64,000 nt of DNA, from the NCBI RefSeq assembly GCF_036971445.1, contig NC_091471.1, positions 261,082,001 through 261,146,000 of the forward strand, in the 5' to 3' direction. A program made the position numbers and the translations under genes. The notes under the pieces are model-generated. The model was not told the DNA's origin and did no database searches. It saw only the letters and a program-made list of their open reading frames with translations. Shown in pieces: positions 24,901-25,665 of this stretch; the first letter of the stretch is position 1, and the number at the start of each line of letters is the position of its first letter. The stretch comes from Narcine bancroftii (taxonomy: Eukaryota).

Positions 24901-25541
24901 GGAGCAAGGAAGTTTTATTTCCTCCAATTTTCTATCATGATTTTTTGAAGTCCGTTTCTCACTGGGCTTCAGTCTCTGAAATCCCCTTTGGTACCTCGTA
25001 AAATTGGTGGCAAAAATTAGCAGAAAATATAGGACTGGCTTTCTAAATCATTAGGAATGACTCAATGCCAAATGTTATCCTGTACTTAGTCAAAAATGCA
25101 TGCCGTGCATGCACTTATTTGCTATTCCAAAAATAGTCACTATCATGAGAAGAGGGAATATGAATTCATCACCCTTGCCCTACCCTGTTTTCTCTCAAAA
25201 TACGTGACCACTTGAACCCATTTTAAGCAGCTAATCTGGCTAAGATCAGCCATCTTTTTGGAAATCAAACTGGAAAGCTGCTGGCCTATAGGGCTGCTGA
25301 AGTCATTAACATTTTATACACCTAGACATTGAAAAAGGACATTTTTGGTGTATTTGGAAGGCAATGAGAAAACTTTACAAATGTAGTATTGATATCGAGT
25401 AGTTTAGAATGCATCTGCATCCTGCTTTTAACCCATAATCTTCCTCTATCCTGCTCTTACACATCTACGTTTGTAGACCTTGTTTGGCTGTTGACTGTAA
25501 GGTGTGTGAGTTGAACTCAAGTACTGATAGCCTGCTTAAAG

Positions 25542-25665
25542 TTTTACCCCCAGAGGACCCGGAAGTGAGGAGTGTCGCAGAGAAGCTGGCAAAATATGTG
25601 GCAGATGGGGGTCATGAAGTTGAAAAGCTTGCCATTCAGAACAACAGAGACAACCCTGCCTTCTC
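25542..25665 (+). CDS. SUGP1: SUGP1 exon 5 (SURP1 N-half)
   Basis: [42 protein letters not shown]|gtgagt. Confidence 0.92.

Follow-up and report, generated by a model that had tools for sequence, protein, structure and literature searches.

Exon 3 of Drosophila Sxl has a dual-AG acceptor that is used through SPF45. Splice sites sensitive to SUGP1 and SF3B1 have short branch spacing and weak pyrimidine tracts. AS-NMD poison exons are described for the SR-protein, TRA2B and SMNDC1 genes in excerpts of PMC11791180, PMC11357089 and PMC6547761. Excerpts of the SUGP1 literature describe SUGP1 as an activator of DHX15 in splicing quality control. Loss of SUGP1 from the spliceosome is reported in the excerpted text of PMC12434867 to drive mutant-SF3B1 missplicing in cancer, and SUGP1 loss copies the 3' site choice of mutant SF3B1 (excerpts of PMC12434867 and PMC7790757). 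Cryptic sites sensitive to SUGP1 are typically found 10-30 nt 5' of the rival site (PMC7790757, in part). According to the same part of PMC12434867, a 50-60% fall in SUGP1 protein reproduces about 40% of mutant-SF3B1 missplicing, and SUGP1 dose therefore matters.

Here we examined a window of 64,000 nt from Narcine bancroftii, by which we mean the whole stretch of DNA analysed (contig NC_091471.1, positions 261,082,001 to 261,146,000). A sequence-based prediction had placed two rival acceptors before exon 5 of SUGP1, one productive and one leading to a premature stop, with SUGP1 level setting the choice between them.

Rival acceptors at the end of SUGP1 intron 4

SUGP1 lies on the + strand of the window. 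Exon 4 showed a 100% match to the Narcine bancroftii database protein SUGP1 (P0001), and homology to P0001 placed 14 coding exons between 12124 and 38455. Exon 4 ends at 21902 and exon 6 starts at 28406. On the minus strand, 1-6513 holds a second SURP-domain gene, which we take to be SUGP2, in head-to-head orientation to SUGP1; the acceptor of its SURP exon (2968-3276) is conventional, and no copy of the module described below accompanies it. Reverse-transcriptase-like LINE fragments lie on the minus strand at 25718-27718, beginning about 50 nt past the exon-5 donor. The features around the intron-4 acceptors were as follows.

21657..21902, + strand: SUGP1 exon 4, shared donor of both rival acceptors, phase 1; exact to P0001 residues 107-188, with AG/GT ends
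25426..25473, + strand: for the poison acceptor, a pyrimidine-rich tract with a distal branch-point candidate (A 25431), branch use predicted; 73% pyrimidine from branch A to AG, 32/46 identical to the intron-6 twin
25474..25476, + strand: poison acceptor TAG, 65 nt 5' of the productive acceptor; read from the sequence, with an annotated human acceptor at equal offset
25477..25541, + strand: poison extension that lengthens exon 5 by 65 nt; 63/65 bases shared with the twin, tail matches to P0096 (8/12) and to P0015 and P0043 (6/12)
25506..25511, + strand: donor-like GTGAGT, read from the sequence; none of 3 poison-tail proteins exits there
25512..25514, + strand: in-frame premature stop TGA, 151 nt 5' of the next exon junction; position matched in P0096, P0015 and P0043
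25522..25541, + strand: productive acceptor module with proximal branch candidate A 25527 and AAG, lacking a pyrimidine tract; identical in the twin, matched by 7 residues of lizard P0018
25542..25665, + strand: exon 5, first half of SURP domain 1; Pfam PF01805 at E 1.4e-06, P0001 match
25551..25553, + strand: third acceptor candidate CAG, 12 nt inside exon 5, in frame, dropping 4 residues that precede the SURP domain; 5/100 database proteins

Every coordinate of the original prediction was recovered on the window sequence (TAG 25476, GTGAGT 25506, TGA 25512-25514, A 25527 and AAG 25541). Homology identifies the AAG ending at 25541 as the productive acceptor, because relatives from ray to lungfish show V-x-P-P directly past exon 4; the CAG at 25553 was rejected as the main acceptor since homology favours AAG. 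The claim that the productive site has no polypyrimidine tract was borne out: its longest pyrimidine run between -30 and -3 was 3, the shortest among 13 SUGP1 acceptors and tied with the twin only. Its pyrimidine fraction (0.59) was higher than that at introns 3 and 9 (0.53). The near-consensus proximal branch point also stood by position, the branch-like heptamer at 25522-25528 placing the candidate A 25527 at 14 nt from the AAG end and matching 5 of 7 positions of the U2-complementary consensus. Two other acceptors of the gene were odd: that of intron 2 (21155-21171) has a 6/7 branch match merely 11 nt from its CAG, and that of intron 3 (21630-21656) ends in AAG and has a pyrimidine fraction of 0.53. 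An Rfam search of 25300-25700 gave no match at E<=1.

Use of the poison TAG adds 65 nt and a stop after 12 codons (25476-25511), and the TGA foreseen in this extension is present and in frame. A stop triggers NMD when it lies more than 50-55 nt before a junction; the stop-to-junction distance was 151 nt in both twins. NMD of the intron-4 isoform and of the ray isoforms is therefore predicted from this rule. A 29-nt micro-exon ending at 25505 would shift the frame, its stop falling 128 nt short of the exon-6 end. The donor at 25506 had been called perfect and is not so, its last three exonic bases being TGT.

Intronic YAGs with at least 70% flanking pyrimidines occurred at 0.37 per 100 nt (45 sites in 12,005 intronic bases), and none of these 45 had a GTRAGT shortly downstream. 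A comparable upstream YAG at a pyrimidine fraction of at least 0.65 was found in 2 of the 11 other SUGP1 introns, or in 5 of 11 if 0.647 is rounded up. The intron-4 anatomy by itself is not rare and would be weak evidence; the dual-acceptor arrangement rises above chance because it is conserved.

A twin of the module at the end of intron 6

A genome search with 25400-25680 returned two matches, the query itself and the end of intron 6. The original prediction mentioned neither this twin nor the in-frame CAG at 25553 nor a possible hairpin.

29181..29318, + strand: twin module with distal branch candidate and tract, poison TAG (ends 29231), 65-nt extension, stop at 29267-29269, productive AAG (ends 29296) and 22 conserved exon bases; from sequence comparison, the human intron-6 acceptor lying 58 nt upstream
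29297..29420, + strand: exon 7, first half of SURP domain 2, a paralogue of exon 5 and likewise 124 nt; from homology and the twin comparison

We measured ungapped identity between the intron-4/exon-5 and intron-6/exon-7 copies. Identity was 28% in the flanks (51/185 far upstream, 48/170 downstream). Within the intronic module it was 32/46 over the distal branch and tract, 5/5 over the poison AG and 63/65 over the extension; in the exon it was 21/22 at the start and 74/102 over the remainder. Comparison of the extension with the rest of the exon shows that intron bases are better kept than coding bases. Between exons 5 and 7, 15 of 25.5 synonymous sites were changed (59%), and the first 22 exon bases held no synonymous change across 6 codons. 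Conserved bases reached 40 nt upstream of the proximal branch point, and the borders of twin identity coincided with splice signals. Judged from the sequences, the similarity of the twins is not due to chance.

SURP exon peptides from 8 elasmobranchs were compared over 41 positions and placed in a tree, in which 1 of 15 branches was starred and support was weak. SURP1 and SURP2 peptides grouped separately, with 36-41/41 identities among SURP1, 34-40 among SURP2 and 29-33/41 between SURP1 and SURP2 inside one species. The two exons thus form separate lineages, and recent whole-exon gene conversion was rejected on this separation in the 8 elasmobranchs, as read from a weakly supported tree. It is possible that a short gene-conversion tract inflates the 63/65 identity. 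Codon 6 of exon 5 encodes D in Narcine bancroftii, as in exon 7, and the E form is found in 5 of 7 other elasmobranchs. Within cartilaginous fishes, the peptides of the two SURP exons resembled each other more (29-35/41) than in gharial (23) or in a lungfish-like record (21). The sequences hint at an old SURP gene conversion in the cartilaginous-fish lineage.

Folding predicted one further, tentative feature.

25456..25510, + strand: predicted hairpin in which the poison pyrimidine tract pairs with the donor-like site and encloses the poison AG; from folding

The hairpin gave a folding z of -2.6 in intron 4 and -0.7 in the twin (43/200 shuffles), over an interval picked post hoc. Eighteen pairs were common to the twins, one of them compensatory, in a comparison of two sequences only. 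Both differences inside the 65 nt fall in the hairpin, one with a compensating change. The whole 156-nt element folded no better than its shuffles (z 0.05, 100/200). The hairpin, which is a lead only, or U1 binding could explain the conserved middle of the extension, and the donor-like site may serve to bind U1 or to form a hairpin. At 25499-25507, the two differences between twins create a donor-like site at 25502, from which a 25-nt micro-exon ending at 25501 would replace exon 5 in frame; this candidate was rejected, being absent from the twin. The human tail described below fits the twin's bases at these differences.

Poison-site use in human and birds

In the accessible part of Table S7 of PMC12434867, human SUGP1 has an annotated acceptor 65 nt upstream, with PSI rising from 0.084 in controls to 0.368 on AQR knockdown, and a cryptic acceptor 58 nt upstream, rising from 0.017 to 0.158. 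The excerpted text of that paper assigns the 58-nt event to intron 6 and reports that it adds a stop, increases with emetine (NMD-sensitive) and is not induced by SF3B1 mutation. Geometry, with the two junctions 501 nt apart, and protein P0096 led us to assign the 65-nt event to intron 4. Both coordinates were absent from the remaining 14 of the 15 supplement files. On the partial tables, the productive site took about 92% of human steady-state junctions at intron 4 and 98% at intron 6 in control cells, and poison-site use stood at a few percent. NMD hides poison flux in steady-state junction counts.

Proteins carried the same signal. Past exon 4, human cDNA FLJ58060 (P0096) has a tail identical to the ray translation of 25476-25511 at 8 of 12 residues and to the twin at 9 of 12, with an identical stop codon position. 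P0015 and P0043, proteins whose sequences group with those of birds, matched the ray at 6/12, again with an identical stop position. Among 39 unrelated control tails, 0-3 of 12 residues were identical. The ray tail could be converted into those of P0096, P0015 and P0043 by 4, 8 and 7 base changes of 36, against 13-24 for the 39 unrelated tails. The galago tail P0017 (2/12) was excluded from the matches and from the controls; it has 12 residues past exon 4, shares with the bird tails only the E-x-M-x-L-L start, and is perhaps a decayed or mis-annotated copy. The horned-lizard gene model P0018, which reads through the intron end, agreed with the ray at all 7 of the final residues that precede the exon.

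Among 100 database proteins, 23 used the productive site, 3 carried the poison extension, 5 used the +12 CAG and none used the micro-exon; 52 were read-through or other and 17 had no anchor. P0092 and P0093 ("isoform 7" of human and orangutan) are other annotated truncated SUGP1 forms, with a 6-residue tail past exon 4 that is unrelated to the 65-nt extension; isoform 7 is possibly a further NMD form. A search among shorter cartilaginous-fish isoforms matched 1 of 13 candidates, and that one was an intron read-through. In a search of sequencing runs with 23 words, the expected share was 0.73 for extended exon 5 and 0.44 for plain exon 5; four runs of one study gave 0.74, 0.74, 0.43 and 0.43, values which, with run kinds guessed and reads unaligned, were not counted as evidence. 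None of the 23 runs listed was identified as RNA with the module, and shares of 0.09-0.22 are no evidence.

The human 65-nt acceptor and the human and bird tails show that the upstream AG is used in these animals, so the view that it is never used fails for human and birds. The stop-forming upstream AG of the original prediction therefore stands as conserved and used in human, at the 65-nt offset, and in birds; its use in the ray is predicted. Conservation of the orthologous intron, which had been suggested as a check, was found in the human annotated acceptor at exactly 65 nt upstream and in bird-cluster tails with the same stop. The intron-4/6 pair is a jawed-vertebrate-wide, duplicated poison 3' splice site.

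A proposed feedback on SUGP1 level

We propose that SUGP1 proofreading tips acceptor choice in introns 4 and 6 and so forms a negative feedback, a reading that we consider likely, with a probability of roughly 0.57. Introns 4 and 6 each end in two acceptors: use of the conventional upstream site adds 65 nt with a stop predicted to trigger NMD, and use of the unconventional downstream site makes protein. The productive site, with its candidate branch A 14 nt from AAG and no tract, would resemble sites rejected by SUGP1-DHX15 on SF3B1. At high SUGP1, more of the U2 complexes at the productive site would be discarded, and splicing would go to the upstream poison site; at low SUGP1, or with mutant SF3B1, the productive site would pass. 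If the productive acceptor is a marginal proofreading substrate, then more SUGP1 would send more transcripts to the poison acceptor. Two modules in series would multiply the effect, the surviving fraction being the product over two introns, and further spliceosome steps such as that of AQR feed in too. The broader claim is that SUGP1 measures its own proofreading, using for more than 400 million years an aberrant-like productive acceptor and a conventional decoy, twice in series, such that its mRNA survives as proofreading slackens; for this we see even odds.

The lack of induction of the human intron-6 site by SF3B1 mutation, as given in the excerpt, fits the feedback reading. Against it, normal cells use mostly the productive site, as would not be expected of a cryptic site that is rejected, and this site lies 65 nt downstream of its rival, compared with the usual 10-30 nt upstream. 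In favour of the reading, a long-read table on SF3B1 mutation (PMC11610591, seen as an extract) lists the human intron-4 event in its CLL block, matched by a single offset of 110,809 at both ends. By the IsoTools layout, the eight numbers of the CLL row would include an adjusted p of 0.06, a p of 2e-4 and group PSIs of 0.006 and 0.194, the groups being unlabelled in the row. For SUGP1, the blocks for cell lines and MDS in this extract were empty. A mutant PSI of 0.006 would fit the human control value of 0.084 and the absence of the event from the 14 other supplement files; such tables, however, usually show values of about 0 in wild type and 0.2 in the mutant.

On AQR knockdown, poison use goes up while SUGP1 protein drops by 50-60% (PMC12434867, excerpt); this too speaks against the feedback reading, and SUGP1 is therefore not the sole input. 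In a different reading, the conserved module senses general spliceosome activation (the AQR step, SF3B state or speed) or another factor, setting SUGP1 dose without being operated by SUGP1. AQR knockdown is the sole perturbation whose direction was seen in these partial sources, it raises both poison sites, and the conservation evidence fits equally well. We nevertheless think such a sensor rather unlikely, given that the productive site has acceptor features of SUGP1- and SF3B1-sensitive sites and that the intron-4 event is present in the extract of the SF3B1-mutation table.

In an improbable variant, SUGP1 acts on the choice of AAG or the in-frame CAG; high SUGP1 would then yield a protein shortened by 4 residues ahead of each SURP domain, and the poison site would form a second layer. 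The CAG lies 12 nt into both exons, so that its distance from the productive AAG is that of a textbook cryptic/canonical pair, and a short run of pyrimidines separates the two AGs; the bases around it are the 22 that the twins share at 21 positions with no synonymous change, and the CAG may be a third output of both exons. The 5 proteins that use it may be gene predictions, however, its human coordinates had no match in the 15 supplement files of PMC12434867, and AAG is used by 23 of the 100 proteins.

We regard as very doubtful a further reading, in which exon 5 and a 29-nt cassette micro-exon exclude each other under RNA-binding protein or U1 control, the micro-exon being the poison product. 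Both twins have the GTGAGT, the conserved C-V-S-stop ending in human and birds is compatible with it, and the 36 nt from donor to productive AG are too short for an intron; yet the exonic side of the donor is weak, the partial human tables list 3' extensions, and all 3 poison-tail proteins run past the donor-like site to the stop, so that this route of the original prediction found no support. The last alternative, no regulation at all, with twins alike by gene conversion and the upstream AG a leak beside an awkward acceptor, draws on the commonness of upstream YAGs and on the closeness of cartilaginous-fish SURP exons, but conversion within a ray cannot account for the offset, tail and stop that recur in human and birds, conservation reaches 40 nt 5' of the proximal branch point, and the reading is largely refuted by the human acceptor rows and the human and bird tails.

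The splice forms are already known, since the human events are annotated or tabulated; the self-regulation reading was not found in the searchable literature. A search by title and abstract start, mostly of non-subscription papers, found no paper on SUGP1 control of introns 4 or 6. Wording on self-regulation is absent from the main text of bioRxiv 10.1101/2022.11.14.516533, and wording on autoregulation or feedback from the excerpt of PMC12434867, where the event is treated as missplicing. A gene-name search of U2 IP-seq supplements (PMC12002318) found SUGP1 in figure text only, and PMC5181593, in its excerpt, concerns SUGP1 intron 8.

If the proposed feedback is true, a built-in, conserved dose control would explain the existence of a site called "cryptic" in AQR-depleted cells, and the module would be a natural reporter of branch-site proofreading and an antisense target for shifting SUGP1 levels. 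SF3B1-mutant cancers would switch the poison route off. The question raised is whether a fidelity factor tunes itself by the errors that it passes, and it is testable with existing RNA-seq.

Comparison with known systems

The human SUGP1 intron-6 cryptic site (PMC12434867) is the orthologous event, a stop-forming, NMD-sensitive upstream acceptor, and the intron-4 event stands in the same table, as far as the excerpt extends. The human intron-6 offset is 58 nt, compared with 65 nt in the ray, and the excerpt of that paper has no mention of conservation, duplication or self-regulation.

Cryptic sites of SF3B1 mutation or SUGP1 loss likewise have short branch-to-AG spacing, a weak tract and a better CAG 12 nt downstream (excerpts of PMC7790757 and PMC12434867). 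The SUGP1 productive acceptor shares the spacing (14 nt, predicted) and the weak tract (run of 3) by which such sites are commonly recognized. Unlike them, the AAG is normal, dominant and conserved, with its main rival 65 nt upstream. Rather than lying 10-30 nt upstream of a canonical AG, it is itself canonical and lies 12 nt before a minor CAG, and rather than being little used, it is dominant in human control cells and found in 23 of 100 proteins. The productive acceptor may work like an SF3B1-type cryptic site but is not one.

Sxl exon 3 also has two nearby AGs in an autoregulated splicing-factor gene, autoregulation being proposed for SUGP1. There, both AGs depend on one branch point and a sequence-specific repressor; in SUGP1, two full branch/AG modules appear to compete.

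As with the poison exons of SR-protein, TRA2B and SMNDC1 genes, the SUGP1 element is noncoding, deeply conserved and located in a splicing-factor gene, its use adds a premature stop, and disturbance of splicing or NMD increases or uncovers that use. Unlike them, it is an alternative 3' splice site and not a cassette exon, it occurs twice in series, its poison site looks conventional and its productive site aberrant, and the proposed input is a proofreading activity and not an RNA-binding protein at an enhancer. The module is used in transcripts (human PSI rows, P0096, P0015 and P0043), its conservation extends beyond splice signals (63/65 in twin DNA; 8, 6 and 6 of 12 in protein tails), and the host product is a splicing factor (100% SUGP1 match; SURP domain). 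By these tests it is a conserved AS-NMD element, for which we propose an autoregulatory loop.
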